Shown one piece after another: positions 11,385 to 51,808 of a stretch of 64,000 bases of DNA. Within the stretch, counting starts at the first letter, position 1, and each line of letters opens with the position of its first letter. The stretch is from Calditrichales bacterium (GTDB lineage: Bacteria > Calditrichota > Calditrichia > Calditrichales > J004), in NCBI GenBank assembly GCA_965267575.1, contig OZ254086.1:2439805-2503804 (forward strand). The letters are read 5' to 3'. The notes under the pieces are model-generated. The model saw only the letters and a program-made list of their open reading frames with translations. It did no database searches and was not told the origin of the DNA. A program made the translations under genes and the position numbers.

Positions 11385-11400
11385 TGATTCGGTAGGCGGA

Positions 11401-11754: not shown

Positions 11755-11867
11755 TGTTACCTCCGGGTTTGTTTTGATCAATAAGACAGGCGCAGTTTTA
11801 AAACGGTTTCAGCTAAATAATTTTTTTTGGTTGAAACCGATATTAATTTCAGACTGTCTTAAGGGGT

Positions 11868-29866: not shown

Positions 29867-29977
29867 TTGCACCTCCTGTGTTTGACTAAAATCCTTGAGG
29901 TATATTTCGGAATTAATACGGCGCTTTTTAGGGGAAATGTTTTTGCGGCTGTCTTTTGTGATACAGAACAGGCAAGG

Positions 29978-30175
29978 TCAGTCTTTTTGCGCTCCCGAGA
30001 TATTAAAGCGCTTGAGGAAAAGCGCTTCCGACTCCACGGTACTGATCATTATCATTTCGCTGTTTTCGGCAAGCTGCGTGCCGGCTTTGGGGTTGATCTC
30101 CTTGGTGCCGTTTTTGCGTAGGCCGATGATGCTGCAGCCGGTCTGTCTGCGGAAGTCGGTTTGGGCGTAAGCTAT
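29978..30175 (-). pseudogene. 3' remnant of a gene encoding a TrkA-C (RCK_C) domain
   Basis: The minus-strand frame reads ...AQTDFRRQTGCSIIGLRKNGTKEINPKAGTQLAENSEMIMISTVESEALFLKRF...*, a TrkA-C consensus shape. There is no upstream gene body; homology stops where the AT-rich DNA begins. Confidence 0.55.
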
Positions 30176-30427
30176 TAGATTTATCCCTAAACATTTGTTT
30201 TTTAATACTCTGCGGATAGTTTCTGAGTATTGCCAGGAGGGGTGATAAAACCGGGTGTCGCAGGTTTAAGTCAAAATAGAATTGTCTTAGGGTAAATGTG
30301 ACGGTTATATTATGAAAGCTAAAACAACGCTAATAAACCAAGTATATAATGTGCATAATTAGGAATGTTATAACATGGATTTTAGTACGTCTAATACTTG
30401 TTATTGTTTTTTAATAGGAGATTTGAA

Positions 30428-31510
30428 ATGAAAAAAGTAATATTTTTACTAATTATAACTCTATCAGCTTGCTCTGAGAAGTCATCAGAACCTAAAAATT
30501 TATATACAGTTTCAGGGATCATTTATCAGAATGGGCAACCAAGCATCAATACTGTTGTTTCCATTGATGATAAATTAAATTTATCGACCACGACAAATGA
30601 GAATGGTGAATTTTCTATTGGTAATGTTCCTGAAGGAGATAGATTATTTAAAACTTCAAAAACCTATGTTGATGGAAGTTTTGTTGAGAATACTTCAAAC
30701 ATTAGTGTAAATAATGACATTGAATTGAATTCACTTATTCTTCCAAATCCAACAAAACTAAATGACGTTAACGTTAAAACAGATAACTCGATAACACTAA
30801 CATGGTCACCTTCCAATGCATTAGATTTCAGGGAATATAAAATATACCGCAATTCAACACCTGGATTAGATGAGCAGACGGGTACTTTAGTTTATGTGAC
30901 TATTGATAAAAATGACACTTCGTTTGTGGACGAAAATCTGGATGCCTTAGAGACATATTACTATCGTGTATTTGTAATGAATGAGTTTAGCCGCCTTGGT
31001 GGCAGTAATATTGTGTCAGCTACAACAAATAATAAAAATTATATCTGGAATGGTGATTTTGAATTGCAGGAGAATCCTTTAGTTTGGTGGAATAGTTATA
31101 ATTTTGGTCAAATCCAAATTACAGATAGCATTAAGATTTCTGGTAACTATTCTTTACTGTTAAAATCTGAACAATCAAGTGTAGGTCATCTTCTCTCTGA
31201 TCTCTCAAAATGGGGGGCAACATTTAAATTAGTAGGAGACCGTACGTACAAAATATCCGGATGGGTTAAAACAGAAGGTGAGTATAGTGAATATGTTGGG
31301 GATTTTTGGGGTGATCAAACAACAGAAAAAGCCGGATTTTTATCTTATAGTTTTTTTGGAATATTAGGTGTTCCACCCAATTCAGATTGGACATACTTAG
31401 AAAAAACTTTTTTTGTAAGTTCAGCTGATGTAAATAATTTTAGTTTAAGTTTACGAAGCTCATGTGAGTATACTTGGTTTGATGACTTAAAATTGGAAAT
31501 AGTTGAGTAA
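30428..31510 (+). CDS. Lipoprotein with CarboxypepD_reg-like, fibronectin type III-like and CBM-like regions; low-GC gene
   Basis: Lipobox MKKVIFLLIITLSAC. FN3-like LTWSPSNALDFREYKIYR...YYYRVFV. One hand-counted 60-nt sample was 35% GC. Confidence 0.7.
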   Translation: MKKVIFLLIITLSACSEKSSEPKNLYTVSGIIYQNGQPSINTVVSIDDKLNLSTTTNENGEFSIGNVPEGDRLFKTSKTYVDGSFVENTSNISVNNDIELNSLILPNPTKLNDVNVKTDNSITLTWSPSNALDFREYKIYRNSTPGLDEQTGTLVYVTIDKNDTSFVDENLDALETYYYRVFVMNEFSRLGGSNIVSATTNNKNYIWNGDFELQENPLVWWNSYNFGQIQITDSIKISGNYSLLLKSEQSSVGHLLSDLSKWGATFKLVGDRTYKISGWVKTEGEYSEYVGDFWGDQTTEKAGFLSYSFFGILGVPPNSDWTYLEKTFFVSSADVNNFSLSLRSSCEYTWFDDLKLEIVE

Positions 31511-31624: not shown

Positions 31625-32059
31625 ATGGAAATAGTACAAACAAAGCTGCAGCACCAGCATACATGGGTGGCCGTTCGCAAGCGGCTTTGGCCCGGTGATC
31701 CCGAAAATCATAAACAGGAAACGGCCGCCATTGTTGCCGCGGATTCGGAAAACGCCTTCCTGCTGATCGACGGGCAGGGGAAGGCCCACGGTTTTATCGA
31801 AGGCAAGTACTACCACGCCAAAGGGCAAAAATACGGTCACGTGGAAGGCTGGTTTGTGGAGCCGCAGCTACGGGGGCAAGGTTTTGGCGCGCAACTGCTG
31901 GAGGCCCTCGAACACTGGTTCCTGCACCATTCCATCACCTGCTTCCATTCCGACACCATCGAAGAAGAGTATCCTTTGAGCAAACGGGCCCACATCCAAA
32001 ACGGCTATGAGCCGATCTATCAGATCACTGTCCTTTTAAAAAAGGCAGGGAGGAAATAG
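31625..32059 (+). CDS. GNAT acetyltransferase, aminoglycoside 6'-N-acetyltransferase-like
   Basis: WVAVRKRLWPGD...VEGWFVEPQLRGQGFGAQLLEALEHW resembles AAC(6')-I type enzymes. The assignment is by memory of motifs only. Confidence 0.65.
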   Translation: MEIVQTKLQHQHTWVAVRKRLWPGDPENHKQETAAIVAADSENAFLLIDGQGKAHGFIEGKYYHAKGQKYGHVEGWFVEPQLRGQGFGAQLLEALEHWFLHHSITCFHSDTIEEEYPLSKRAHIQNGYEPIYQITVLLKKAGRK

Positions 32060-32272
32060 CCATGTGGACTTTCTGCGTGCCGTAATCATTGTTTCTGTTT
32101 ATGCTTTTGGCTTGTGATGATACGGGCCGTGTTTACATCACACCTGCCCAAAAACTGCGCCGGATAAAGTGTGGTTGCATGATGGCCTTTAGATCCGCTG
32201 CCATTCTACCGTCCCGCATACGTTATTCCTTAATATATTTGCTTTTCACCCGATCATGAGCAATAGAATTTT

Positions 32273-32992
32273 ATGGAGCAGCGCAAGATGGCATCAGATA
32301 CACAAAAGGCCGGCTTTGAAATACCGGAAACCGTTCTCAAAAAATGGCAGGATATCATCGATACGATCGCTGAATTGTTTCATGTACCTGCCGCGCTCAT
32401 CATGCGTATTGTGGAAAGCGACATCGAGGTGTTTGTTTCCAGTAACAGCGCGGGCAATCCCTATAAACCGGGCGACCATGAACATTTTCTGGGGTCCGGC
32501 TTGTATTGCGAAACGGTGGTAAATAAAAACCGGAAGCTGCTGGTGCCCAACGCGCTGAAAGACGAAAAGTGGAAAAACAATCCCGATATTAAACTGAACA
32601 TGATTTCCTACCTGGGCTTCCCGATCCTGCAGCCGGACGGCAAGGCCTTTGGCACCATCTGCGTGCTGGATGATAAGGAAAACGCCTACACCGAAACCTA
32701 TGAAAAGCTTCTGGCGCAGTTCCGCGATATTATTCAGAACAACCTGGAGCTGGTTTATATGAACCATGTGCTGGGAAGTGAGAACAAGCGGCTGAGCGAT
32801 TATATGTCCGAGATACAGACCTTGCGGCGGATCGTTCCTCTATGCGGCCACTGCAAAAGTGTTCGCGATGATGAAGGCTATTGGCAGACTGTCGAAAGCT
32901 ATATCGCGCGGCTTTCGGAAGCACAGATCAGCCACGGCATTTGTCCTGCCTGTGTAAAAAAGTATTACCCCGAACTGGATGATGTTATCTAA
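32273..32992 (+). CDS. GAF-domain protein with a C-terminal Cys/His cluster
   Basis: GAF-like core (YLGFPILQPDGKAFGTICVLD). Tail PLCGHCKSVRDDEGYW...ISHGICPACVKKYYP. Confidence 0.7.
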   Translation: MEQRKMASDTQKAGFEIPETVLKKWQDIIDTIAELFHVPAALIMRIVESDIEVFVSSNSAGNPYKPGDHEHFLGSGLYCETVVNKNRKLLVPNALKDEKWKNNPDIKLNMISYLGFPILQPDGKAFGTICVLDDKENAYTETYEKLLAQFRDIIQNNLELVYMNHVLGSENKRLSDYMSEIQTLRRIVPLCGHCKSVRDDEGYWQTVESYIARLSEAQISHGICPACVKKYYPELDDVI

Positions 32993-33145
32993 GCCGGCCG
33001 CTTAAACTCACCCGTTTATTGCGCGACTGCTTCATTACCTTTCTTCCCGCCCAGGGACCCCGGTATTTTTTGATTACCTTTCTGCCTGTAATATTTTATC
33101 CCGGCCAGGGCAGTTTAATTTTCATCAGACGACAAAGGAGAGCAC

Positions 33146-34015
33146 ATGGCGGGCCTTAGTACAGCATTGCTCGTGCTGGCGGCCTTTTTCTGGGGCTTAT
33201 CCGGCGGGATCGGCGCCGTTCTGATAGCGGATGGCTGGGACGCGTTTGTCGTTTCGTTTTACCGTGGCGCGATCGGATTGCTGTTTGTTGCCGCCTGGCT
33301 GGCGCTGAGTCCGCGTGGCAGCGGATTGGCCAACGGCCGCTTGTGGTTCTGGTCGGCGGTTGCCGGGCTGGGTGTGGCAGGCAACTTTGCCTTCTATTTT
33401 ATCAGCATTGCCGAGGGCAGCGTGGCGGTGGCGGTTACGCTGATGTACTGCGCGCCGGTGTTCGTTTACCTCGTGTCGTTCCTGCTTAAGCTGGAAAAAC
33501 CTTCCCCGTTTAAGTGGTCGGCGATCGTGATCGTGATGATTGGTATTGTATTGCTTACCCAGGTGTATGACATCGGCGGCGGCGATGTTACGGCGGTTGC
33601 CGTGGGCGCCGGGCTGCTTGCCGGAATGTCTTACGCCGTGTTCATTTTCGGTTTTAAATATGCCGCGCCGCACGGCAGCCCGCAGGCCATTCTGATGATA
33701 GCGTTCGCCGTGCTTGCCGTCGTCCTCATCTGGCCGGCCGACAGCGGGCAGACCGTTGCCGCGCTGACCTCGCCGGGCTGGCCTTTGTTTGCCGCGCTGG
33801 GTGTGCTTGGCGCGGGACTGTCGTTTATCCTTTATGTTATCGGTCTTAGCCGCAGTACGCCGGCCGTGGCATCCATTGTGGCGATGGTCGAGCCGGTTAC
33901 CGCCGCGCTGTTTGGCGTTGTGCTTTTGCATGAAAGCCTGGACAGCATACAGCTTTTGGGCATGGGGCTGATATTGTTTGCCGTGACCGGGCTTAGCGTG
34001 CATTCGAGTCCTTAG
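33146..34015 (+). CDS. EamA/DMT-family transporter
   Basis: About 10 TM helices in two EamA-like halves. Confidence 0.88.
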   Translation: MAGLSTALLVLAAFFWGLSGGIGAVLIADGWDAFVVSFYRGAIGLLFVAAWLALSPRGSGLANGRLWFWSAVAGLGVAGNFAFYFISIAEGSVAVAVTLMYCAPVFVYLVSFLLKLEKPSPFKWSAIVIVMIGIVLLTQVYDIGGGDVTAVAVGAGLLAGMSYAVFIFGFKYAAPHGSPQAILMIAFAVLAVVLIWPADSGQTVAALTSPGWPLFAALGVLGAGLSFILYVIGLSRSTPAVASIVAMVEPVTAALFGVVLLHESLDSIQLLGMGLILFAVTGLSVHSSP

Positions 34016-34142
34016 CTGCCGGGCAGGGATGAGGTACCAGGGGCAAGCGCGATGCGGGCATCATTAATTTTTTAAAGGTTGTATGCCGGCGGTTGTATAA
34101 CAAAAATATCTTCATATCTTTATTAACATCTCCCCGCACGCA

Positions 34143-34625
34143 ATGGTAAAGAATATCTTTACAACGGAGAAGAATATGACACAACGCGAAGCAAGACCCG
34201 CCCTTATTTACCTTCTTTTGGCCTTGGTTTTTTTCCAGGGTGTCAGTGGCATCTTTGGTGGCATCGGCCTGGTGCTGGACCCGTCGGGCCGGGCGCTGCA
34301 GATTCCGCTCAAATGGCTGGCCGGCTCGCCTTTTGGCAATTATTTCATCCCGGGCATTATCCTGCTGTTTGTGCTGGGTATATACCCGCTGGTGGTTTTT
34401 TACGGTCTTTTCCGGCGATTGCCCTGGTCCTGGCCGGGAGCTTTGCTGCTGGGCATAGCCCTGCTGATCTGGATTGGTGTTGAGATTCTGGTTATCGGCT
34501 ACCAGCCGCAACCGCCGCTGCAATTGATATACGGTTTGGTGGGAGTGCTTATTCTTGCCGTGGCCCTGCTGCCTGCCGTGCGGGGATTTTATAGGGCGGG
34601 GGAGCAAATTAATTCGGGCCATTAA
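34143..34625 (+). CDS. Small multi-TM membrane protein (intact copy of the triplicated gene end)
   Basis: Four predicted TM helices. The start is uncertain (34143 or the internal ATG of MTQREARP). Its 3' part recurs at 38091 and 39149. Confidence 0.6.
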   Translation: MVKNIFTTEKNMTQREARPALIYLLLALVFFQGVSGIFGGIGLVLDPSGRALQIPLKWLAGSPFGNYFIPGIILLFVLGIYPLVVFYGLFRRLPWSWPGALLLGIALLIWIGVEILVIGYQPQPPLQLIYGLVGVLILAVALLPAVRGFYRAGEQINSGH

Positions 34626-34711
34626 ACAATCCGTCATTAAATTTTTGAGAATCCCAGACTCCAACGTTTATATTCCCCTTAAGCTTGCCACCATACTAAG
34701 GGGAAGAAATC

Positions 34712-34805
34712 ATGTTTATTAAACACGCATTGCTCATTGGCTCCTTTTGTTTTCCCCATTTCCGGTTGCAGCAGTAACGGTGATGAGAGTTCAACGGGAC
34801 CGGAA
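34712..34805 (+). pseudogene. Frameshifted 5' fragment of a paralogue of the 38325..38792 lipoprotein gene
   Basis: The ATG and signal-peptide region align with 38325..38420 (ATTTCCGGTTGCAGCAG shared). The reading frame from the ATG hits TAA after 21 codons. Similarity ends near 34805. Confidence 0.55.
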
Positions 34806-34809
34806 AGTC

Positions 34810-35088
34810 GGAGAGCCCCTGCAGTCGATCGCGCGGCCCATTTCATCTGTGGTCGAAAGCACGAATTGTTTGACGATGTTGACCTCCTTCCCGAAGCACA
34901 GGAAGCACATTGCCATAGTCTATGATGAATATGGCGGCCTTGATGGACTTGTTACCATGGAAGACCTGATGGAGACAGTTCTGGGCGATGAGATCATCGA
35001 TAAAACAGATCGGATTGTTGATTTACAGAAGGCCGCTCGTAAGTGCGAGTTTGATAGTAAAACCGGCGGAAAAGAGGATAAATTATGA
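34810..35088 (+). pseudogene. 3' fragment of a CBS-pair gene (CorC/HlyC-type), 5'-truncated
   Basis: Frame of ORF 34747..35088: ...FPKHRKHIAIVYDEYGGLDGLVTMEDLMETVLGDEIIDKTD is the second CBS / transporter-associated region. No N-terminal part is present. The stop overlaps the next gene's ATG. Confidence 0.6.
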
Positions 35089-35918
35089 GCTATGAACAAT
35101 TCCTTGCAGACCTGGGAAAACTACTGATTCAGTTTAAAGAAAACCTGATCGCATTTTTTCCGCAACTTGTTCTTGCGATCGTAATCGTCCTGGTCGGTAT
35201 TATCGTTGGCCGTATCTTCCGGGCGTTGGTGAACCGTTTTATCGGGGGGCTGGACCGGTTCGTTGCCAACCGAAAAGTCCAGGGCAGGCTCCAACAACTA
35301 CAGCTGGAACGATCCGGCAAGCTGGTTGGAAAGATGGTCTATTGGATCATCATCGTCTTCTTTTTGACCGCTGCCACGGAAGTACTCGGTATGCCCATCA
35401 TCACCACCTGGCTGAGCGGGCTGGTGCGTTACTTACCCAATATCCTGATAGCCGTAATGATCGTCTTACTCGGCATCATAGGCGGCCGCCTGGTGAATAA
35501 TTTCATCACTACCACTTCGTCCACGGCAGGATTGTTGTATGGAAATATGCTGGGGAGGATCGCGCAGTATGTCATTATCCTGATAACCATTTTAGTGGCC
35601 GTGGACCAGATCGGAATCGAAATCGCAATACTAACCGGCGTGATCAATATCGTTATAGCAGCCATTCTATTTGGCGCGGCCCTCGCTTTCGGGTTGGGCG
35701 CCCGCACATCGGTTAACAACATTCTCGCATCCTATTACCTGCAGGGCCGCTACCGCGAGGGACAAACGGTGAAAATCGGAGATTTTACAGGCCAGATTAT
35801 TCAAATTACTCCCACTGCGGTCATCCTGCAGACAGAAGAAGGACAGGTATCCGTTCCTGCCAAGAAGTTTAGCGAAGATATCTCCACGTTAGTGAAACGG
35901 GAAGGAGCCACAACATGA
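35085..35918 (+). CDS. Membrane protein with conserved-TM-helix repeats and an MscS-like beta domain (mechanosensitive channel-like)
   Basis: Repeated TM helix modules. C-terminal GQTVKIGDFTGQIIQITPTAVILQTEEGQVSVP resembles the MscS beta domain. Confidence 0.55.
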   Translation: MSYEQFLADLGKLLIQFKENLIAFFPQLVLAIVIVLVGIIVGRIFRALVNRFIGGLDRFVANRKVQGRLQQLQLERSGKLVGKMVYWIIIVFFLTAATEVLGMPIITTWLSGLVRYLPNILIAVMIVLLGIIGGRLVNNFITTTSSTAGLLYGNMLGRIAQYVIILITILVAVDQIGIEIAILTGVINIVIAAILFGAALAFGLGARTSVNNILASYYLQGRYREGQTVKIGDFTGQIIQITPTAVILQTEEGQVSVPAKKFSEDISTLVKREGATT

Positions 35919-36751
35919 ACAGCGACCTGCTCATACTGGAGAGTTTTATCAAACAGCACCCCGCGGATGTGGCGCGCATAGTGGAACGGCAGAAGGTCGA
36001 GGACAGCGCTGCACTGCTGCAGGAAATTCCTTTCGAGCTTGCCGTAGAAGTTTTTCGGCATCTGGAAAGCTACACGGCGGTGAGATGTCTTGAACTACTG
36101 GATGCCGACCGAGCTGCGGCGATTGTTGAGAAGCTTCCTTTACAGGTAGTGGCTGTTTTTCTGCGCCAGGTTAACGAAGAGCTGCGAGAGACGATCCTCG
36201 GGTTGGTAGCAGAAGAAACCGCCATCCCCTTACGCAGAATACTGAGTTATCCTCAGGGCAGTGCCGGTGCTCTGGCCGACCCGCAAGTGCTTACATTGCC
36301 GGACGACATTGCGGTCGAAGAGGCTTTAAGACGCGTTCAAAAACGCCCGGAGAATGCAATATATTATCTCTACCTTGTCAACCGGAACCAGGCGCTCAGC
36401 GGGGTTATTACTTTGCGCGAGTTGTTGTTGGCGCATTCCGGCGAGCCGCTTTCCGCGGTGATGTCTGCAGAGGTGCAGTGGTTACACGCAGACCTTGGTT
36501 TTCAGGCTATCATTAATCATTCCGCATGGCAGGAATATCACGCGCTGCCCGTGGTGGATAACAGCGGCATGCTGCTGGGCGTGGTTCGTTACGAGACGCT
36601 GCGGCGGATTGAAAAGGACAGCAAAAAAGGCGTTTTGCCGCGCCACGCGTTAACCGCCAGTGCTTCGCTTGGCGAACTGTATAAGATTGGACTCTCGAGT
36701 CTGGTTCGCAGTGTCACGATGCCGGTGAAGGATCTTTTAGAAGAGAAATAA
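35915..36751 (+). CDS. Soluble MgtE-like protein (MgtE N-domain + CBS pair, no TM domain)
   Basis: MgtE_N-like helices (AALLQEIPFELAVEVFRHL) and a CBS pair. Ends before any TM segment. 4-nt overlap with the upstream gene. Confidence 0.75.
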   Translation: MNSDLLILESFIKQHPADVARIVERQKVEDSAALLQEIPFELAVEVFRHLESYTAVRCLELLDADRAAAIVEKLPLQVVAVFLRQVNEELRETILGLVAEETAIPLRRILSYPQGSAGALADPQVLTLPDDIAVEEALRRVQKRPENAIYYLYLVNRNQALSGVITLRELLLAHSGEPLSAVMSAEVQWLHADLGFQAIINHSAWQEYHALPVVDNSGMLLGVVRYETLRRIEKDSKKGVLPRHALTASASLGELYKIGLSSLVRSVTMPVKDLLEEK

Positions 36752-36768
36752 AAAAAAGAGGCAGCCAA

Positions 36769-38085
36769 ATGCAAAAAACAGCTTCAATTGTTACCAGGTC
36801 TCTGATAGAGGGTTTCTTTCAGCTTTACCCGGGGGAAGCAGCGAGATTGCTGAATTCCTTTAAAACGCAAGAAATACTTAAGCATTTACAAGCGCAGCCA
36901 ATCGACCGCGCCGCGCAAATCTATGCCCTTCTAAACACGGATATTGCAGCGAACCTGATCGGGAGCATGGAAAAAGAATTCTTCTTGCAGCTTTTTACAT
37001 CCATTGATCCGTCGCTGGCAGGCCGATTGCTGGCCCGCCTTGATGACAAGGTTGTCCGGGAACGGCTGTCGCTATTGCCGGAAAACATTGCCAAAGAAAC
37101 AAGAACATTGATGCAATACCCACCGGGAACCGCCGGCCACCTGATGTATCGCCGGGTGTTGGCGTTCCATCCGGATGACAGCGTTGAAGACGCCCTGAAA
37201 ATCGTGCGTGCCACCCGCGACCGCCGAATTATATACATCTATCTTGCAGACGAGGATGGAAAACTTGTGGGCATGCTGCCGCTTCAGGAGATTGTCGTAG
37301 CCCAACCGAATGACCGGCTTGGCGGGCTGATCCACACCCGGCCCGTGACAGTCCAGGCGATGTCCCCCCTGGAAGATGTGGTGCAGCTTTTGGAAGAACG
37401 CAAGCTGATCAGCCTGCCGGTTGTGGACATCGAGGGCAAGCTGCTGGGCATTATCCGCAATGATGCTCTGGTTAGCGCTGCCCGGGAAGACGCCAGCGAA
37501 GACTTACAGGCAATGTTTGGCGCCGGCCGGAATGAACGCGCCCTCTCAAAAGTCTCGTTTGCAGTTCGTAAGCGGCTTCCATGGCTTGAAATGAACCTGG
37601 CAACGGCTTTCCTGGCCGCGGCGGTTGTCGGAATATTCGAGGATACCATTGCCAGAATTACGGTGCTGGCCGTATTCCTGCCGGTAGTTGCCGGACAATC
37701 CGGCAATACGGGCTCCCAGGCCCTGGCGGTGACCATGCGCGGCCTGGCCCTGCGCGAGATTCGCACACGCCACTGGTTTCGCGTGGCGCGCAAGGAGATT
37801 ATAGTCGGCAGCATAAACGGTTGTGCCGTCGCCCTGACCACCGCACTGATAGTGTTTTTTTGGGCCGGTTCCCTGAGCCTGGCTGCGGTGATCGCGGTAG
37901 CGATGGTGCTTTCTATGGCGATTGCAGGATTATCGGGTGCGGTTATCCCGATTATTCTTCAGGCCTTAGGCCAGGATCCGGCGCAATCCTCATCGATTGT
38001 CCTGACCACTGTCACCGATGTAGTGGGTTTTCTTAGTTTCCTGGGGTTGGCCACACTGTTTGCGAACGTTATCAACCCCGGTTGA
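36769..38085 (+). CDS. mgtE: Magnesium transporter MgtE (full length)
   Basis: MgtE_N, a CBS pair and the C-terminal TM domain with VAGQSGNTGSQALAV and TDVVGF motifs. Confidence 0.9.
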   Translation: MQKTASIVTRSLIEGFFQLYPGEAARLLNSFKTQEILKHLQAQPIDRAAQIYALLNTDIAANLIGSMEKEFFLQLFTSIDPSLAGRLLARLDDKVVRERLSLLPENIAKETRTLMQYPPGTAGHLMYRRVLAFHPDDSVEDALKIVRATRDRRIIYIYLADEDGKLVGMLPLQEIVVAQPNDRLGGLIHTRPVTVQAMSPLEDVVQLLEERKLISLPVVDIEGKLLGIIRNDALVSAAREDASEDLQAMFGAGRNERALSKVSFAVRKRLPWLEMNLATAFLAAAVVGIFEDTIARITVLAVFLPVVAGQSGNTGSQALAVTMRGLALREIRTRHWFRVARKEIIVGSINGCAVALTTALIVFFWAGSLSLAAVIAVAMVLSMAIAGLSGAVIPIILQALGQDPAQSSSIVLTTVTDVVGFLSFLGLATLFANVINPG

Positions 38086-38090
38086 GACCG

Positions 38091-38243
38091 TGGGGCATCG
38101 CCCTGCTTATCCGGATTGGCGTTGAGATTTTGGTTATCGGTTACCAGCCGCAACCGCCGTTGAGTTATAACCGCTTCGCGGTCCGTGTCTGCTGCGCGGG
38201 GTTTTATGGTTTGGCCGACATGAACGCGGGCGCAATAAAATAA
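38091..38243 (+). pseudogene. 3' remnant (copy B) of the 34143..34625 membrane-protein gene family
   Basis: Translates WGIALLIRIGVEILVIGYQPQPPL..., versus LGIALLIWIGVEILVIGYQPQPPL in the intact gene. No 5' part. Begins 6 nt after the mgtE stop. Confidence 0.6.
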
Positions 38244-38324
38244 ATCTTGCCACAAAATTTTGAGTATAGCGGCCCTAAGCGTTTATATTGCCTTTAAGCA
38301 CGCCACCATATAAGGGGAAAAATC

Positions 38325-38792
38325 ATGTTAATCCAACGCCTATTGGTTACAGGTCTCCTTTTATTTTTCATCATTTCCGGTTGCAGCAGCACGGATGATG
38401 ATAATGCAACCGGACCGGAGGACGGGCATCCCCCGGCTGAAATGATAGGCACGTGGATATTCCAGGCGGTAACGGTGGACAGTGTTCCCGCCAGCCTGGC
38501 GCTTGTAATGGAGTGGGTGCCGGATGCCGTGCAGGCCCGCTTCCATGTGGTGAATGATATCGGCTCTTTTGTTTATGAAGAGGTCAATCTTATGGGTGGC
38601 CAGCTCTACGCGGCATCGGGTTTTGTTTACGTGGAAGGCAACGAGATAGACATAAACCTGCTACAGGATCACGAGGGCAACGAACTAGATGAAACCATCT
38701 TTATGACGTTTGCCCTTGAAGCCGATACGCTGACCCTGAACGAAACGGACCAGGGGCAGGCTATCACCTATACACTTTACAGGAAGCAATAA
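38325..38792 (+). CDS. Small lipoprotein
   Basis: Lipobox LFFIISGCSS; 155 aa; no catalytic motif. Confidence 0.65.
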   Translation: MLIQRLLVTGLLLFFIISGCSSTDDDNATGPEDGHPPAEMIGTWIFQAVTVDSVPASLALVMEWVPDAVQARFHVVNDIGSFVYEEVNLMGGQLYAASGFVYVEGNEIDINLLQDHEGNELDETIFMTFALEADTLTLNETDQGQAITYTLYRKQ

Positions 38793-38964
38793 AAGCCTGC
38801 TATATTTGCCGCATTCCTGTGATGGTTTTTGGGGGGCGGGTTTATCTTTGGTATTACTAGGAACGGATTTTAGCCCGCCTTATACTGCGATATATATTTG
38901 AGCTTATTTAAAACCTGCAAACTACACGAAGCATCTCACATACACATAGGAGCGAAAACAAAAT

Positions 38965-39141
38965 ATGAAAAATGAAAAAACCGTCATTTTAGGCGCGGCA
39001 TTTGGTGCAGCGTTTGGAAGTGTCATAGGCGTTCTGACAGATAACTTAGGTTTATGGATTAGTTTGGGCATTGCATTGGGTGCCGGCGTTGGTTTTACGT
39101 TAGAGAAAAGGCAGAAAAAAGACAATGGCGATAAAAGCTAA
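38965..39141 (+). CDS. 58-aa glycine-zipper-like membrane miniprotein (below the ORF-track cutoff)
   Basis: ATG at 38965 preceded by AGGAG. MKNEKTVILGAAFGAAFGSVIGVLTDNLGLWISLGIALGAGVGFTLEKRQKKDNGDKS. Confidence 0.45.
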   Translation: MKNEKTVILGAAFGAAFGSVIGVLTDNLGLWISLGIALGAGVGFTLEKRQKKDNGDKS

Positions 39142-39148
39142 AATATAA

Positions 39149-39249
39149 GCCGCAACCGCCGCTGCAGCTTATTTATGGTTTGGTGGGACTGCAATATTCT
39201 GTGTGGTGGCCTTGCTGCGTGCGTTCGGGGCTTTTATGCTGGCGTATAG
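39149..39249 (+). pseudogene. 3' remnant (copy C) of the 34143..34625 membrane-protein gene family
   Basis: AGCCGCAACCGCCGCTGCAG...GGTTTGGTGGGA aligns with 34504 onward. Encodes PQPPLQLIYGLVG, then a 1-nt indel, then ...VRGFYAG. Confidence 0.5.
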
Positions 39250-39372
39250 GAAATTAGATTTTTTTTTGCTTTATTTTTTAACGGGATGATTGTATAATGT
39301 TCGAGACTGAAAGAGCAATGGAAAATTACCGCCCCCAAACAAACCATTTGAGGAAATGATGGAGACGAAACA

Positions 39373-42300
39373 ATGAGTGGTGCCGTTCTGGATAATATCG
39401 GTGATCAGCAAGAGCAGGAGGAGATCCTACTTCCTTCGCTTAAATGGCAAAAGAAGTGTGATATCGGAGTGATTTCCCATATAGTTCGCCCAGAGCACGT
39501 CGAAAGAACTACCGCGCGTACAAACATTAAGGTCTCGCCGCGGATTGAGCAGCCTTTGCTCGTCCTGGAGTCGGGTGAGCGTATAGTCCTCACCAGGCGA
39601 AAAAAATGCCCCGTACCTGAAGGAGTTGATGGTGTCCTTCACGAGACGGATCCCGGCTCATTTTCCTGGCAGTTCCATCGCGATCTCGCCGGGCAGGACG
39701 ACTCTACGCAATGGGAAGAAAAGAAATCACAGGTGGCGAAATCCTGGAGGAGTGGAATCCGGTACGCCTCAGAACAAGTGGATGCTGAGGGTAATCCGAT
39801 ACGGCCCGGACTCCGTTCGCCCCAGATTGGCGCCCTTCATTCCATCGGCGCACATTGGAGCCTGTATAGCACGCCGGCCACGATTGTTATGCCCACCGGG
39901 ACCGGGAAAACAGAGACTATGATTGCGGTGTTGGTCGGACAGGTAAGAGGAACGCTGCTTGTCGTCGTCCCCTCCTCACCGCTTCGCGAGCAAACCGTGA
40001 AAAAGTTTCTCACACTGGGTCTACTCAGGAAGCTCAGAGTCATTCCGGAAGATATGCCTAATCCGATCGTTGGTGTGATCAACAATCGTCCGCGTTCAGA
40101 AGCCGATCTTGATATCTTCGATATGTGTCATGTCGTGGTCTCGACAATGGCAGCCGTGAGCCAGGGTACTGCTACAGACCTTGTACCGAAGATTGCTGAG
40201 CGGTCCTCGTGCCTTGTCGTTGATGAGGCGCACCATGTGGGCGCAAAGAGCTGGGCTGCATTCAGAAAAGAATTTTATGCCACGCGGGTCCTGCAATTCA
40301 CAGCAACGCCGTTCAGACGTGACGGCGTGCTTGTAGACGGAGATGTGATCTACTCCTATCCGCTTCGGCGCGCTCAGGAAGATCAGTATTTCAAGCCGAT
40401 AAGGTTTGATCCGGTCTGTGAAATTGAGCTGCAGAATGCTGATCGCTCCATTGCTGAGAAGGCGATCGCGCAGCTTGACACCGATTTGGATGCTGGGTTA
40501 GACCACCTGTTGATGGCGCGCTGCAACAAGATCCAAAGGGCGACACAGATTCGCACCCTTTATCAGGATCTGGCGCCAGAACACGAACCGATCCTAGTAC
40601 ACTCTGAAGATTCTTCGTCAGCTCGTCAGTTAGAACGACTATACAACCGCGATAGCCGCATTGTCGTTTGTGTCGAGATGCTTGGTGAAGGCTTCGACCT
40701 GCCGCAACTCAAGATTGCCGCTATTCACGATACGCACAAGAGTCTGGCTGTCTTGCTCCAGTTCACAGGCCGTTTTACCCGCACGGCAGGTGACAACATC
40801 GGGGCTGCGACAGTGATCGCGAACATCGCCGACCAAGATGTATCAGTGGGACTCGAAAGGCTCTATAGCGAGGATGCCGACTGGAACACGCTTCTTGCAG
40901 AGATGAGCTCAGATGCCGTTCGTGAGCATAGAGAGCTCGTCGAGTTTCTGTCTCAGTCGGTTTCTTTGGCAGATGAAGATGACGACGATGCGCTCACATC
41001 GATTTCTCCGGCGTTACTCCGGCCAAAATTTAGTACCGTCGCGTACAGGGCCGGTGAATTTAATCCGCGTCGTTTCCACCGTGCAGTACCGACAGACAGC
41101 GAGGTACACCGCGTGTGGCTCCATGAGGAATCCAGCACGCTTTATTATGTAACGAAAACAGAGCCGCCCGTACGCTGGACTCGAGCGCAATCGATCCAGG
41201 ACCGTGAATGGCACTTGTATGTCGTTCACTATGATGCCGATCTCGGCTTGCTGTTCATCCACTCAAGCGACAAGTCCTCCCTGCATGAGAAACTCGCCAA
41301 AGAGGTCGGCGGAGCGAACGTCGCTTTGGTTCGTGGGGATTCTGTGTTCCGCACCCTTGCCGGTATCAACCGGCTTCAGTTTCAGAATGTCGGTGTCACC
41401 AAGCATGCGCGCCGCAATTTACGTTATGCGATGTACACTGGCGCGGACGTTCGCCAAGCGCTGGAGATCTCTCAAACCGCCGGTTCCACGAAGTCCGTGC
41501 TCCAGGGTACAGGCTACGAGAACGGTTTGCCGGTTGCGATCGGCTGCTCATTCAAAGGCCGTGTGTGGTCGAAGGAAGGTGGACCGATCGCCCATCTAAC
41601 CAAGTGGTGCAAATGCGTTGGCTCGAAGCTCATCGATGACGCGATCAGTACAGATGAGATCCTTCAGAATGTATTGGTGCCAGAGGAGATTTCAAAGTTC
41701 CCTGAGGCAACGGTGCTTACCCTGGAATGGCCGCTGGAAATCCTCCAGCAGCAAGAGGACAAAGTCCAGCTCGTTCGGAGTGGTGTCGAAACCCCATTGT
41801 CCTACTTTGATCTCCGTTTTGAAGATATTGGCGAGGACCGTCAAACCATGCGTTTTTGCCTCGTATTTGAAGGAGAGCGGTCAGGATATATCCTCCGCCT
41901 TGGTGTTGCCAACGCCTACGAGTTTGCGCACGTGGCCGGGCCAGCTCTCTCGATCGGCGTAGCACGCCGTGAACTACCACTGGCTGATTTCTTGAATGAC
42001 TATCCGCTCTTGGTTCGCTTCGCCGACCTTAGTGAACTGGATGGTCATTTGCTAATCAAGCCGGAGGAGGCAAAGGATCTGTCGTTTCCAGCAGATAGAT
42101 TCGATGTGTGGGATTGGGACGGTATCGACGTCACCAAAGAATCCCTCTGGCGGGATGGCGCGGTGCATGAAGACACTGTCCAGGCGCGCGCAGCCCGGTA
42201 CTTCATTGACGCCGGCTATGGCGTCATTTTCGACGATGACGCTGCGGGTGAAGCTGCTGATCTGATCTGTTTTAAGATGGACGATGAGACCATTCACTTT

Positions 42301-42675
42301 GCTCTCGTTCACTGCAAGTTCAGCGCCAATGTCGGTGGCGCTCGCCTTGAGGATGCCGTTGAAGTCTGCTCCCAGGCGGTGCGCTCAGGACGCTGGCTTT
42401 GGAAGTTTAAGGAACTATGTCGTCACATCGCGAAACGGGAGCAGCGCCTTCGGTCTGACATACGGCCGAGCCGTTTTCTGCACGGTGGCACGCACGAGAT
42501 GGGCAGCATTCTCCGCGCAAGCCGATTCAAGGAGATCCAGGGACAGATTGTCATTGTACAGCCGGGGATTTCGCGCGAGAGGCATAGCGATCGTCAGGCA
42601 ATGATCCTCGCGGCAGCGTACAATTTCCTGATGGATACAGTTGGCGTACCGTTGGACATAGTTTGCGCGGAGTAG
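39373..42675 (+). CDS. 1100-aa SF2 (DEAH, ResIII-like) helicase with a C-terminal PD-(D/E)xK-like putative nuclease module
   Basis: Walker A MPTGTGKTE (nt 39889-39915), VVDEAHHV (D284 at nt 40222), FTATPFRRDG, and a motif VI-like QFTGRFTR. C-terminal GEAADLICF-x11-VHCKFS (nt about 42220-42330). GGAGA lies 8 nt upstream of the ATG. Confidence 0.85.
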   Translation: MSGAVLDNIGDQQEQEEILLPSLKWQKKCDIGVISHIVRPEHVERTTARTNIKVSPRIEQPLLVLESGERIVLTRRKKCPVPEGVDGVLHETDPGSFSWQFHRDLAGQDDSTQWEEKKSQVAKSWRSGIRYASEQVDAEGNPIRPGLRSPQIGALHSIGAHWSLYSTPATIVMPTGTGKTETMIAVLVGQVRGTLLVVVPSSPLREQTVKKFLTLGLLRKLRVIPEDMPNPIVGVINNRPRSEADLDIFDMCHVVVSTMAAVSQGTATDLVPKIAERSSCLVVDEAHHVGAKSWAAFRKEFYATRVLQFTATPFRRDGVLVDGDVIYSYPLRRAQEDQYFKPIRFDPVCEIELQNADRSIAEKAIAQLDTDLDAGLDHLLMARCNKIQRATQIRTLYQDLAPEHEPILVHSEDSSSARQLERLYNRDSRIVVCVEMLGEGFDLPQLKIAAIHDTHKSLAVLLQFTGRFTRTAGDNIGAATVIANIADQDVSVGLERLYSEDADWNTLLAEMSSDAVREHRELVEFLSQSVSLADEDDDDALTSISPALLRPKFSTVAYRAGEFNPRRFHRAVPTDSEVHRVWLHEESSTLYYVTKTEPPVRWTRAQSIQDREWHLYVVHYDADLGLLFIHSSDKSSLHEKLAKEVGGANVALVRGDSVFRTLAGINRLQFQNVGVTKHARRNLRYAMYTGADVRQALEISQTAGSTKSVLQGTGYENGLPVAIGCSFKGRVWSKEGGPIAHLTKWCKCVGSKLIDDAISTDEILQNVLVPEEISKFPEATVLTLEWPLEILQQQEDKVQLVRSGVETPLSYFDLRFEDIGEDRQTMRFCLVFEGERSGYILRLGVANAYEFAHVAGPALSIGVARRELPLADFLNDYPLLVRFADLSELDGHLLIKPEEAKDLSFPADRFDVWDWDGIDVTKESLWRDGAVHEDTVQARAARYFIDAGYGVIFDDDAAGEAADLICFKMDDETIHFALVHCKFSANVGGARLEDAVEVCSQAVRSGRWLWKFKELCRHIAKREQRLRSDIRPSRFLHGGTHEMGSILRASRFKEIQGQIVIVQPGISRERHSDRQAMILAAAYNFLMDTVGVPLDIVCAE

Positions 42676-42914
42676 TAGACGAGAGAAATTTGATGGCACG
42701 ATACGCATAACAGATTTCGGCACAGATCGACACAGTATCCATGCCTCCCTCAGAGCGTGAGGATTTTTGGAGAGGATTAGGGGAGTAATCATTTCGCTTT
42801 TAAAAAAAAGATGATTGCTCAGGCGGCTTTTTTTGGCTTCGACATATTAGGCTCGTTGAAATACCATATAGTGAAAAAATTAAGAAAGATAAACCACGTT
42901 CTGGAGGAACTGAA

Positions 42915-44504
42915 ATGAAGAGAGTAACTGATTTAAACCTCGGTTTTAGAGACGCAGAAAACTATCATCGAAGGGAAAACAAGCAGCTATTTGAGTCTAT
43001 CTTTATAAAGAGTATTTTTCTTGACCAACTTTTGAAACAGAGTTGTTTTTTCGTGATTGGCGAAAAGGGAACAGGTAAGACCGCCTACGCAGTCTATTTG
43101 TCAAATAATCACTACGAGAACAATATATCCGAACTGAAATATATCCGGGAAACAGAATACCAAAAATTTGTCAAACTAAAACAAGAAAATCATCTCCAAC
43201 TCTCCGATTATACGTCCATTTGGAAGGTTATAATTCTGTTACTATTGGCTAGGTCTGTAAGACCAGATGAACTCGACCATTTACCATTCAGCAAAAATGC
43301 GAAGATAAGGGCACTTAACAAGGCAATAGATGATTACTATCAGAATGCGTTTTCTCCTGAAATTGTCTATGCTTTAGATTTGATCGAGAATTCAAAAATT
43401 GCAGCTGAATTGATATCAAAACATCTTAAGCTTGGCGGGGAAAGTTATTCTAGCGCTACATTCCATGAATCGAAATTTCAAGTAAACCTGCTTTATATTC
43501 AAAAGCAATTTGAGACGGCATTGAGCGATATCAAAATCAAGGACAACCACTTATTGTTTATTGATGGGATCGACATCCGACCAGGATCAATTCCTTATCG
43601 CGATTACCTTGATTGTGTCAAGGGTTTGGCGAACGCAATTTGGAGTCTAAACAACGATTTTTTCCCAACAATTCGTGATTCAAAGGGACGATTTAGAGCC
43701 ATCCTACTATGTCGACCGGACATCTTTAACTCTGTAGGCCTTCAAAATGCAACAAACAAAGTAAGGGATAACTCAGTTTATCTTGATTGGCGAACGACAT
43801 ACCCAAGCTACCGAAGCTCGCATTTGTTCCAACTTTCAGACAGATTACTTGCCTCGCAGCAAACGCATTCTCCGGATCTTGGTAAAGCTTGGGATTATTA
43901 TTTTCCGTGGCGCATCCCATCCGTTCACAGGGATCGAAAGTTCGACGATTCATTCGTTGCAATTCTACGAATGTCCTATTCAAGGCCACGTGATGTAGTA
44001 TCTATCCTCCAGGTCCTTCAGGAAGAGTTCTCTCAGAAAGCTAAAAATACAGACGCAGTTTTTTCAGAACGTGATATTAAAAGCAATGATTTCAAAAATA
44101 AATATTCTCAGTACTTGATGGGTGGTGTTCGGGATCAATTAGCATTCTATTACAATGACAAAGACTACGAGATGTTTTTGAAGTTCTTTACTTTCCTAAA
44201 CGGCAAGTCAGAATTCACCTATGAGAGTTATATGACTGCTTATGAAAAGTTTACTGAATATGTTTTGACCCATCACGATGATATTCCTGAATTCGTCGAG
44301 ACTCCAGACCAGTTTATTCAATTTCTTTATGACACTAACATAATTTGCTATATAGAGGATACCGATTTTGAACGGTTATTTCGATGGTGTTACCGCGAGC
44401 GCAATCCATCAAACATTTCGCCCAAGGTAAAGCTTGACACAAGGTATCGTATTCACTATGGTTTGCAGAAAGCTTTAAATGTTGGATCTCAATTGGTCCG
44501 CTAA
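42915..44504 (+). CDS. Orphan P-loop NTPase (N-terminal ATPase domain, uncharacterised about 300-aa C-terminal region); low GC
   Basis: Walker A GEKGTGKT (nt 43059-43082) and Walker B-like LLFIDGID (nt 43551-43574). GGAGGA RBS. Two hand-counted 60-nt samples were 35% and 38% GC. Confidence 0.8.
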   Translation: MKRVTDLNLGFRDAENYHRRENKQLFESIFIKSIFLDQLLKQSCFFVIGEKGTGKTAYAVYLSNNHYENNISELKYIRETEYQKFVKLKQENHLQLSDYTSIWKVIILLLLARSVRPDELDHLPFSKNAKIRALNKAIDDYYQNAFSPEIVYALDLIENSKIAAELISKHLKLGGESYSSATFHESKFQVNLLYIQKQFETALSDIKIKDNHLLFIDGIDIRPGSIPYRDYLDCVKGLANAIWSLNNDFFPTIRDSKGRFRAILLCRPDIFNSVGLQNATNKVRDNSVYLDWRTTYPSYRSSHLFQLSDRLLASQQTHSPDLGKAWDYYFPWRIPSVHRDRKFDDSFVAILRMSYSRPRDVVSILQVLQEEFSQKAKNTDAVFSERDIKSNDFKNKYSQYLMGGVRDQLAFYYNDKDYEMFLKFFTFLNGKSEFTYESYMTAYEKFTEYVLTHHDDIPEFVETPDQFIQFLYDTNIICYIEDTDFERLFRWCYRERNPSNISPKVKLDTRYRIHYGLQKALNVGSQLVR

Positions 44505-44530
44505 CCATAATCGGGTTTTACAATAAGCAA

Positions 44531-44650
44531 ATGTGTTTTAATTGTATTTCAAAAAGCCAAACAAGCAAATTCAGCCGATTCACTTCTCGTACAGGATTTA
44601 TAGTTTGCGGAAGTTGTAGTGATTCCTGGGTATCTTTAATGTGTGAATGA
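44531..44650 (+). CDS. Possible 39-aa zinc-ribbon miniprotein
   Basis: MCFNCISKSQTSKFSRFTSRTGFIVCGSCSDSWVSLMCE (CxxC-x20-CxxC). No clear RBS. Could be non-coding or a gene remnant. Confidence 0.25.
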   Translation: MCFNCISKSQTSKFSRFTSRTGFIVCGSCSDSWVSLMCE

Positions 44651-44798
44651 ATCGCGTCTGGTTTTCGGTGTCCACCGGATCAAGTTTTACATAAATTTAG
44701 CCACTTCTCTTTTTCCTAAATATTTACATTTTTGCCACAAATGCCATAGATTAAAAGACGTTTGTGACGACGCAAAAACACAAATCTAAAACCACTAA

Positions 44799-47478
<2,680 letters not shown>

Positions 47479-48008
47479 TATATAATCAAATGTAAAGAGC
47501 TTCGTTTAATTATATAAAAGTTTTACCGTGTAATGTTTGTTCTTTTATCGGGGAGTGATTATACTAAACCCATTCTGCTTGATTCTTCGTTTGTCTCAAT
47601 CTGCGGTTTGTTTTTAAGATTGTCGAAATTTTAGCTGATTAAAAAAACTGACTATTTTATTTGCCCAATGGTCCTGGCATTGATATTACTTATTTAGCCA
47701 ACGTATTTAGATCCATAGATCCTGGTTGCTGATCTGATGGGGTCTTATTTAACAGACGTTATCTTTATATAGGCAAATAAGCCGTTTGAAATAAGAAATC
47801 TGTGATCAGGAGAGCATATGGATTCTTCTTATTCTTTTGCAAAAAGAGAGTTAATTCGTTGTAGTCGCACATACACAGATTGTGTAAGTCCCCGGTCCCC
47901 TCAGGATTTTTATTTAAAAGTATGTTTTAAATACATGTTTGACTGCTTCTGACAGGTCATGCTTTTTCTATTACGTTTTTAAAGTCAAGAAAAAGGAAGG
48001 ATTAAATT

Positions 48009-49607: not shown

Positions 49608-49618
49608 AAGTTTTTTGT

Positions 49619-50155
49619 TTGTCACGGAATTTCTTCTCCGCCTGGAACAAGGTGATGAACCTGGACCGCTTAGATCTGCAATAGGGATTGAATGATTGAA
49701 ATTAAAGGCTCCGTGGGTGTTTGGCCCGCGGGGCCTTTTTTGTTTTGGGGTATTTTATGTGGCGTACCGATGGCACGTAGGTTTTTTGTAGATGCCGTTT
49801 TCTACCTATGTTTTGTCCCTGCGGGACATATCTGAAGTATGGATTGATTCAAGTAATTGTTGATTTATGCGTAATATTCGATCGTATGTTTTTGAAGAAT
49901 CCGCATTTCATTGGTAGGCAGCATTATTCACCGTCCGTCCCGTAAGGGACATGATATGGGTAGAATGGGTATACGAAATACAGGGGTCTGGGCCGCTAGG
50001 TACAGTATGTAATACGACGCGATTGAAATACATAAATGTGAATCGATGCATAAATCGGACACGAAATTTTCTCCCCATTAAATGATCTTATGGTGTACCG
50101 ACGGTATGCTCGGTTTTTTGTAGATGCTGTTGTCTACCCATGTTTTGTCCCGAGG
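49619..50155 (+). repeat. Direct repeat copy 2: katG 3' fragment (non-functional) + terminator copy + REP-like units
   Basis: CGCCTGGAACAAGGTGATGAACCTGGACCGCTT.GATCTGCAAT.AGGATTGAATGATTGAAATTAAAGGCTCCGTGGG... matches 46948 onward. Confidence 0.85.
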
Positions 50156-50730
50156 GGACAAAACGAATAAACCGGTAAAATATCTGTCCAAAGATTTAAT
50201 CGTTTATTTTGACGAATCGAGTCTGTCCCGAAGGGACGCAATATGGGTAGACTAGGAGGTTTTCGTAATCTCATTCTGTGCCGTCAGGTACAGCGCAAAA
50301 GCGGACCCAATAAATATGTGTGGAGAATTTGAAGTGTACCGATGGCACACCCGGATACATGTTTGCGTGGCCGGTTACCTATGTATTGTCCCTTCGGGAC
50401 ACACCTGTATTTCAATAGTAATGATCTTTCCCGTCCCGAAGGGACATAATATGGGTAGCGCATGGCGTGATTGATTAAACCCGGTTTGTACCTTCAGGTA
50501 CAGTACAAAAACGGACCCAATAAATCTTTGTGGTCAATTTTAAAGCGTACCGATGGTACGCCCGCATCTATATTTACTTGATGTGCCTACCTATGTGTTG
50601 TTCCTTCGGGACACTACTTTATGTTTGAGGTTTGATTGTTGTGATGCCAATATTTCTATCCCGTCCCGAAGGGACATAATATGGGTAGACAAGGAGGTTA
50701 ATTTAACCCGACCTGTACCGTCAGGTACAA
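49762..50730 (+). repeat. REP-like array upstream of the Y1 transposase gene: four units, each of four hairpins (A, B, B', A')
   Basis: A = GCGTACCGATGGTACGC-like (49762, 50093, 50334, 50545). B = CTACCYATGTNTTGTCCCTTCGGGACA (49801, 50132, 50373, 50585). B' = GTCCCGAAGGGACATAATATGGGTAGA (49937, 50225, 50433, 50663). A' = CTGTACCGTCAGGTACAG-like (49988, 50277, 50486, 50713). Confidence 0.8.
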
Positions 50731-51679: not shown

Positions 51680-51808
51680 GAATAGAAAAAGGAAACCCGC
51701 CCAGTTTATCAATATATTTTTTCCAGATGACGCTGGGCAAAACATTAAAAACGTTTTATGGTGATCGAAATATTTTTAAATCCTTTTTGAATGATCTGAC
51801 GGTGAACT

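Follow-up and report, generated by a model that had tools for sequence, protein, structure and literature searches.

Displaced 3' ends of a small membrane-protein gene bound variable cargo modules in a Calditrichales hotspot: a probable case of serial homologous integration

In the 64-kb stretch of contig OZ254086.1 analysed here (the window), a gene for a small membrane protein, referred to as M (34143–34625, forward strand, from the list of open reading frames (ORFs); probable true start ATG 34176), is followed by displaced copies of its own 3' end. The resulting array reads M, an Mg2+ operon, stump B, the lipoprotein gene L with a gene for a 58-aa protein, stump C and a defence-like island, after which katG follows. 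The stretch between M and katG looks like a variable hotspot shaped by ordinary homologous recombination and not by a new kind of mobile element. With moderate confidence, the array is attributed to serial single-crossover (Campbell-type) homologous integration of circles that carried an M tail, a promoter-like spacer and cargo. The best reading is 3'-end displacement, a process already proposed for rhs genes, here in a gene that encodes no toxin and with unrelated cargo.

A blastn search of positions 34100–34850 against the whole window detects three M-3' copies, all in the same orientation (forward strand). Copy A (34451–34805) consists of the 3' end of M itself (34451–34625), the spacer between M and L (34626–34711) and a stub of L (34712–34805). 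Copy B (38093–38419) is 70.8% identical over 359 nt (E 6e-38) and copy C (39148–39237) 82.4% identical over 91 nt (E 7e-18). There is no fourth copy in the 64 kb according to blastn, and a hidden Markov model of the M family run on six-frame translations agrees. Copies A and B share 90% identity in their M part (34451–34520 and 38093–38162), 73% in the non-coding spacer and 80% over the first ~94 nt of L. Since the M 3' end, the spacer and the start of L all match, the similarity between A and B is not a motif-level coincidence. A preliminary description of the window had reported three clearly homologous but diverged copies; the E values and the similarity of both coding and non-coding parts, which extends well past the QPQPPL-coding motif, bear this out.

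The internal structure of the copies is more intricate than first described. Copy A does comprise the M end, the spacer and the beginning of L; its L stub, however, starting with ATG 34712, is frameshifted, meets a stop at 34775–34777 and is fused to a CorC-like fragment. Copy B keeps the parts in the same order and leads into an intact L, but ~45 nt of M are missing behind the conserved block coding for QPQPPLQ (the core). Its displaced M tail (38093–38324) starts with M nt 309–378 (38093–38162), continues with a 20-nt hairpin (38166–38185) resembling repetitive extragenic palindromic (REP) sequences, which takes the place of the missing nucleotides, resumes with an M-end remnant at ~38186–38243, and runs through the M–L spacer to 38324. 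Copy C is indeed a third stump starting at the core, although the 1-nt indel ascribed to it turned out to be a 2-nt insertion combined with a 1-nt deletion (net 1 nt). In its full extent (39148–39301) it spans M from nt 362 to the end (39148–39237) and a T-rich segment of 64 nt, tail2 (39238–39301), in which a T-run is followed by TTTTTTAACGGGATGATTGTATAAT and which terminates in TGTATAAT, with TATAAT as its last letters. Tail2 occurs once in the window and stops exactly where the cargo starts. The present 3' end of M, that is the tail of the intact gene from 34504 onward, would be the youngest tail and copy C the oldest displaced one.

A related array is found on the JGI contig Ga0256419_1000542, available as L001 and as the longer L077 (20 kb), which carries the only close homologue of M (93% identity). 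Its flanks are collinear with the window, with identities of 91% for the GAF–EamA–M 5' part, 91% for katG and 84–85% for the GNAT and AcrB genes. Between M and katG, L077 contains five M-3' copies. The first is the end of the intact M, which has a different tail and a DUF4386 gene behind it. After stump s1 (from M nt ~215) come, as in the window, the L stub, the CorC fragment and the Mg operon; stump s2 (from nt 309) with tail2 precedes a 67-aa gene; and stump s3 (from nt ~329) precedes a degraded Y1 transposase gene with flanking repeats, and then MazE-Fic. A spacer, L and a small gene lead to stump s4 (from nt 362), which again ends in tail2; this element is part of the repeat unit in L077. 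Behind s4, an OLD/AriA/GajA-like ATPase and a 318-aa protein (10675–13997) replace the helicase and ATPase found in the window at 39302–44693. Homology between the two sequences does not extend past the TATAAT of tail2 (window 39301, L077 10674) and picks up again 130 nt upstream of katG; the island swap between tail2 and katG is clean. Of the 30 M loci with the best scores, only L001/L077 has tail2 behind M, and a role as a widespread motif was rejected.

Three stumps are shared by both genomes (A/s1, B/s2 and C/s4). All M-3' copies in the two genomes are 3' fragments, and no 5' fragment is present in either. The cargo differs between the window and L077, with each module bounded by M-3' copies. 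Orthologues of stump C occur in assemblies from other samples (L077, L078, L079), and those of A and B in L077 as well; the L-stump-island part is present on L078 and L079, contigs of two further samples. Source samples of the clade are JGI 3300023199 and 3300022725 and run SRR23862440. Real stumps, partly shared by descent, thus enclose a cargo that varies. With its two to three additional stumps and other cargo, L077 upholds the earlier proposal that the M 3' region is a recurrent recombination or insertion point which leaves partial copies in one orientation. An assembly artefact or chimeric contig, or chance similarity in a GC-rich motif, might be suspected from the metagenomic nature of the comparison contigs and from the position of the repeats in a REP-rich, rearranged region. 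However, the low E values, the similarity across coding and non-coding parts, the divergence of the copies from each other, which is at odds with collapsed or expanded reads, and the orthologous stumps in three independent assemblies effectively refute this explanation, whose probability is very remote; the original view that no assembly-type duplication is involved stands. The preliminary proposal would also have been contradicted by relatives that all share one fixed array. Since the array is not identical in relatives, L077 having five M-3' copies and a different island, this possibility falls together with the artefact explanation.

Breakpoints and exchange boundaries cluster on the common AGCCGCAACCGCCGCTGCA core. 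In full, the core reads CAGCCGCAACCGCCGCTGCA (34503–34522, forward strand) and codes for QPQPPLQ; in an eight-way alignment of the M-3' copies of both genomes, no block other than AGCCGCAACC.CCG is invariant. It forms an imperfect palindrome (CAGCCGC-AACC-GCCGCTG), represents the longest identity block among the copies and matches the window at three positions only, 34503, 38145 and 39147. The left ends of the stumps differ (M nt ~215, 309, 329 and 362), and three of the four stump classes include 33–147 nt of M upstream of the core.

Exchange at the core is apparent from informative sites scored among the M of the window, the intact M of L077 and stump s1 of L077. On the 3' side of the core, M of the window agrees with s1 at 22 of 25 informative sites and displays no window-specific change, while the 5' side contains 11 window-specific sites and otherwise a mixed signal. 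The similarity switch is located between 34499 and 34523, i.e. in the core. By segment, identity between the window and L077 is 88% at 34364–34503, 97% at 34504–38085 (L077 3410–6991) and 84% at 38086–38162. The intact M of L077 has a tail that is 75–78% identical to the orthologous one. Inside the 97% tract, identity reaches 99% in the spacer and 100% in the L stub, two parts with no apparent function save for a promoter-like site in the spacer. Because the tract stands at 97% between flanks of 84–91% and its non-functional parts at 99–100%, the segment from the core to the mgtE stop was exchanged between lineages long after its surroundings had diverged. This indicates a recent recombinational import of 34504–38085 and suggests that homologous exchange at the M locus is recent and ongoing.

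Serial homologous integration would produce such an array in the following way. A small incoming circle would carry a fragment of the M 3' region, a downstream spacer (tail2 or the M–L spacer) and cargo genes. A crossover within the M homology, preferably in the longest identical block, the QPQPPLQ-coding core, would join the M tail of the circle to the resident M 5' part, so that M remains intact. The cargo would be placed directly downstream of M, and the earlier M tail would be moved further down as a 3' stump, whose left end would mark the point where the M homology of the circle began. Repeated events would generate an array with the newest module adjoining M, and recombination between the direct repeats may either excise modules as circles, supplying other cells, or delete them. 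Circular intermediates, recombination of the RecA type and the order of events are presumed here. The inserts have homology on either side; the left copy runs on into the intact upstream gene, the right one into the old downstream sequence. This topology matches the product of single-crossover integration of a homology-bearing circle. The differing left ends of the stumps are expected as well, since each circle would carry another length of homology.

A second bracket of this kind lies at the 3' end of katG (44826–47009). The last ~65 nt of katG together with ~460–470 nt of downstream terminator/REP sequence (copy 1, 46944–47471) are repeated as a displaced katG 3' stump with downstream sequence (copy 2, 49618–50151), with 93.8% identity over 534 nt in a self-blast of the window. 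The bracketed cargo (47472–49617; this and both repeat copies on the forward strand) consists of a beta-propeller gene (48009–49607), whose product is sorted by the type IX secretion system (T9SS), and its upstream region. When aligned, L077 displays an empty site: katG is followed by a single copy of the repeat and there is no T9SS gene. A search of the window for the core found no core-like motif at the katG bracket. The katG case is independent of and younger than the M case and points to a recent insertion-type event. As the katG end has the same structure without a core, the bracketing of cargo by gene 3' ends is not specific to M, and a generic homology-driven process fits M and katG alike.

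The array could also have formed in place, through duplication and decay. Former tandem full-length paralogues (M-L, M-L, M...) or local duplications would then have existed, with neither circles nor directed insertion; later deletions and illegitimate insertions would have stripped the additional M genes of their 5' parts and introduced the Mg operon. Such a history accounts reasonably well for the A/B pair: the order of M, spacer and L stub followed by M stump, spacer and L is the one expected if a tandem duplication had its junction at L|CorC, the A/B divergence of 10–27% exceeds that between the genomes, which implies an old duplication, and A/s1, B/s2 and C/s4 are common to both genomes. 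However, all seven stumps of the two genomes keep the 3' end, where random decay should leave 5' or internal pieces too, and the intervening cargo is unrelated and in part foreign in composition. Nor does it account for the divergent tail of the intact M in L077 and the new gene behind it, for the empty katG site in the relative, where repeats of 94% point to a recent insertion-type event, or for the Mg operon occupying non-M loci in the next relatives. On balance, formation in place is considered unlikely.

The preliminary description had compared the stumps with att-site duplications at the 3' ends of target genes, while stating that no recombinase gene is present. The latter is confirmed: no tyrosine, serine or DDE recombinase was found in the 64 kb (Pfam scans of all large ORFs) or in the 20 kb of L077 (precomputed Pfam). 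The only DNA-transaction enzyme in the window is a Y1 transposase of the IS200/RAYT type (50836–51297), 11 kb away, and L077 contains Y1 genes only; Y1 enzymes make no target duplication. Among the 120 nearest sizeable ORFs from ~65 species (136 Pfam families), no integrase recurs downstream of M. The viral contigs of IMG/VR contain no M fragment or attP (plasmid collections were not searched); the core 19-mer has three exact matches there, with flanks unrelated to M, and a viral attP was rejected on this negative search. An Rfam search of 32000–52000 gave no match to a structured RNA or DNA element, and an explanation by such an element was likewise rejected. At the junctions, an integron-type GTTRRRY motif is matched once (GTTGAGT at the break in B); it is not recurrent and was judged a chance occurrence.

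Site-specific recombination could nevertheless act in trans, with an integrase encoded elsewhere or on a helper element, for which the palindromic QPQPP-coding core would serve as attB. Modules that lack an integrase, similar to cis-mobilizable elements (CIMEs) or cassettes and each carrying a core and a replacement M tail, would then accrete tandemly, like islands at the 3' ends of tRNA/tmRNA genes or fda. Tandem att repeats at gene 3' ends have precedent (PMC3146451, PMC5704250), and much of what is seen at the core would be in keeping with an attachment site: it is the sole invariant block of the eight copies and an imperfect inverted repeat, stump C/s4 begins exactly with it, the homology of B and s3 is lost exactly behind it, the similarity switch maps to it, and an IS21 element in another phylum struck the same codons. 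On the other hand, the core is also just the longest identity block and as such the expected site of homologous crossover between diverged copies; the M sequence upstream of it in three of the four stump classes would be needless for an attR; the katG bracket has no core; and the searches detected no integrase (window, L077, neighbourhood of M in ~65 other species) and no attP-like M fragment (viral contigs). Recombination in trans is considered improbable. Due to the variable left ends, the extension of the repeats into the spacer and the next gene, and the lack of recombinases, homologous recombination is favoured over an integrase, as it is by the exchange at the longest identity block, the recently exchanged tract and the katG case; the att-site mechanism put forward at first is not sustained, given four left ends, a repeat reaching into the next gene, no integrase and a katG bracket free of the core. 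It is quite improbable that core and tail2 together form the attachment site of an integron-like capture platform, whose recombinase would either be encoded elsewhere or be the neighbouring Y1/HUH enzyme, working on the core hairpin. If such a platform existed, promoter-equipped cassettes, defence systems among them, would be stacked behind a housekeeping membrane-protein gene.

Several observations weigh against serial homologous integration. Neither a circular form nor a donor genome with a single-copy 'M-tail2-cargo' arrangement was observed, and the comparison rests on two genomes of the lineage. In module 1, illegitimate joining is seen twice (L stub|CorC fragment; mgtE end|M nt 309), and one circle accounts for a single junction of the two. 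Moreover, recombination is inefficient between copies that are 71–90% identical over 100–350 nt. Several non-homologous junctions are situated at the edges of the 17–19-nt core, at the points where C/s4 begins on the left and where B and s3 are broken, and the IS21 element in a Chloroflexia M gene hit the same codons. This clustering of junctions exceeds what plain homologous recombination would give and would be in line with an activity specific for a site or a structure.

The product of M is a small membrane protein of ~140 aa with four transmembrane helices, for which a family search returned no Pfam or NCBIfam family. Its homologues (n=183, ~140 aa) are spread over the FCB group and other phyla. 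The most conserved motif of the family, IGYQPQPPLQLIYG, is invariant among the 183 homologues, and the C-terminal tail of M is a transmembrane helix kept across the family. Among 5.8 billion proteins a single match exceeds 67% identity, and a metagenome scan yielded distant relatives only. The closest named relatives of M and MgtE are metagenome-assembled genomes (MAGs) of Calditrichota, suggesting a placement of the window near this phylum. Nearly all M loci surveyed (69 from species-level genomes, 4 from metagenomes) contain one intact M and no stump within 10 kb. The empty site that had been predicted, M directly followed by L, was found at none of these loci. Lone M-3' stumps are present in three genomes of other phyla (L068, L070, L071), where mobile genes are not evident nearby and the context is uninformative. 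In a Chloroflexia MAG (L072, 5277–10780) the M homologue is split by an IS21-family element (IstA/IstB), inserted inside the QAQ|PP (QPQPP) codons with a GCAG target duplication and itself interrupted by two tyrosine-recombinase genes; this is one event, and its relevance to the array is uncertain. Because M is nearly always single and intact elsewhere, no integrase recurs beside it and no viral M fragment exists in the contigs searched, the stump array is a feature of the lineage of the window and no trace left by an M-targeting element of wide distribution.

The gene content between and behind the copies is as first reported, with a Mg2+ cassette between A and B and a helicase/ATPase island after C (Pfam); the features listed here all lie on the forward strand. 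Directly where the A/B homology ends (34805/34806), the L stub runs into what is present of a CBS/CorC-like gene, its 3' fragment (34806–35088; Pfam CBS match, C-terminal part only), the stop of which overlaps the start of the mscS-like gene. The left boundary of the Mg cassette, between L stub and CorC fragment, is thus an illegitimate gene-gene junction. Cargo 1 is an Mg2+/ion operon (35085–38085) of three genes identified by Pfam, encoding an MscS-like channel (35085–35918), an MgtE_N-CBS protein (35915–36751) and MgtE (36769–38085). The same operon is found at non-M loci in the next relatives (L089–L092), and homology to it in other genomes starts exactly at the mscS-like ATG (35085). An origin of the CorC-like fragment from the nearest Mg operons was not found; those with 81% and 71% MgtE identity have other upstream genes. 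The 46-aa 'members' of the MgtE cluster were discarded as a clustering artefact from eukaryotic LINE-type contigs. Cargo 2 (38325–39141) comprises intact L (38325–38792) and the gene for a 58-aa glycine-zipper membrane protein (38965–39141), both from the ORF list. Homologues of L occur on few contigs and never beside M outside the lineage of the window; one on a 701-kb contig stands alone, without an M fragment. Cargo 3, the variable island (39302–44693), is partly of low GC and contains a ResIII/DEAD helicase (39373–42675), with weak PbeA/Cas3-like matches, and a P-loop ATPase assigned to the Sll1717 family by family search (42915–44504). GC content drops to a minimum of 39% at 43001–45000, in the island ATPase, compared with ~50% elsewhere.

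Promoter-like sequences are located in both spacers, TTGAGA-18-TATATT at 34645–34674 in copy A and a second site at 38260–38289 in copy B. The duplicated spacers may therefore also provide expression signals or promoters to the cargo. The fusion of L stub and CorC fragment (34712–35088) looks like a promoter capture, through which the Mg operon, cut from its own upstream region, would be read from the captured L promoter.

REP/REPIN-like units of ~210 nt form arrays at 47070–47490 and 49750–51730, on either side of the Y1 gene, and include the hairpins GTCCCTTCGGGAC, GTACCGATGGTAC and GTACCTTCAGGTAC. L077 has an equivalent REP/Y1 arrangement and, inside its M array, a second, frameshifted Y1 gene between direct repeats of ~300 nt (7650–7950 and 8470–8770). 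The REP-like hairpin TATAACCGCTTCGCGGTCC is identical in stump B (38166–38185) and at 8822–8841 of L077, beside the degraded Y1 gene, and this shared hairpin suggests that REP insertion or deletion remodelled the stumps. Elsewhere in the window, a GC minimum of 36% at 30001–31000 covers the gene for a CarboxypepD_reg/fn3 protein, and five proteins with T9SS C-terminal sorting domains are encoded in the 64 kb (179–11319, 27575–29872, 48009–49607), in agreement with an organism of the FCB group, probably one related to Calditrichota.

If serial homologous integration is the correct reading, the M–katG stretch is a natural record of how a hotspot fills without dedicated mobile-element machinery: each gain would spare the flanking gene, add a promoter-bearing spacer and leave a dated stump. 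The displacement of 3' ends would be extended from polymorphic toxin genes to ordinary genes (M, katG), and its cargo to ion transport, toxin-antitoxin systems and anti-phage candidates. Strings of gene-end stumps in the same orientation offer a possible search signature for recombination-driven hotspots and for the turnover of defence islands in uncultured phyla. The finding overturns nothing; its worth lies in a well-resolved example and a search handle.

Comparison with known systems reveals partial similarity to several of them. The short target-site duplications of fixed length made by transposons and insertion sequences differ from the repeats seen here, which measure 90–534 nt, the sole transposase being of the Y1 type and 11 kb away. 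In a simple tandem segmental duplication the cargo would be repeated as well, whereas a self-blast finds only the brackets repeated. Integrons and clusters of attC sites lacking integron integrases (CALINs) share with the array the short modules of mostly 1–3 genes in one orientation, the recurring element between them and the promoter-like sequence facing the cargo; in contrast to these, IntI is lacking, the recurring element is a gene fragment, and no attC-type structure was found, although Rfam, used with no dedicated attC model at hand, is a weak test for it. Islands and CIMEs accrete at gene 3' ends at fda in streptococci and at ssrA in Dehalococcoides (PMC5704250, PMC3146451). As in these systems, direct 3'-end repeats delimit the modules, the target gene stays intact and some modules have no recombinase. 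In the fda and ssrA systems the repeats are short and their ends fixed, and one module at least, or a relative, encodes an integrase (PMC5704250, PMC3146451). At M, the repeats span 90–355 nt with four left ends, and neither genome has an integrase at the locus; the fixed repeat ends expected of an integrative element are not seen, the core itself being common to all copies. The topology of homology segment, insert and homology segment is identical to that of Campbell insertion-duplication. Campbell integration is mainly known as a laboratory method and from plasmid and prophage co-integrates, whereas in the array it would have served, in nature and repeatedly, for gene gain between diverged relatives.

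The closest likeness is to displacement arrays of polymorphic toxin genes. In rhs arrays, C-terminal displacement leaves core fragments of variable length and tips with intervening genes, and homologous recombination via circular intermediates has been proposed (Jackson et al. 2009, PMC2935791); orphan cdiA-CT/cdiI and mafB modules form displacement arrays likewise (Poole et al. 2011, PMC3150448). As in rhs and cdiA arrays, an intact gene is followed by 3' fragments in the same orientation with a variable conserved length, and relatives, here the window and L077, differ by whole modules of a fragment and its linked genes; as in rhs arrays, the genes between the fragments travel with each fragment. 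Unlike the rhs and cdiA products, M is a four-helix membrane protein of ~140 aa whose displaced tails are not toxin domains, and the cargo consists not of immunity genes but of MscS/MgtE, a lipoprotein, small membrane proteins, DUF4386, MazE-Fic and the defence-like helicase/ATPase. A further difference to rhs is that a non-coding promoter-like tail is included in the repeat and that the same structure is present at the unrelated katG end. By analogy with the rhs model, homologous recombination via a circle may also have built the M array, and the identity switch at the core and the 97% tract are consistent with it.

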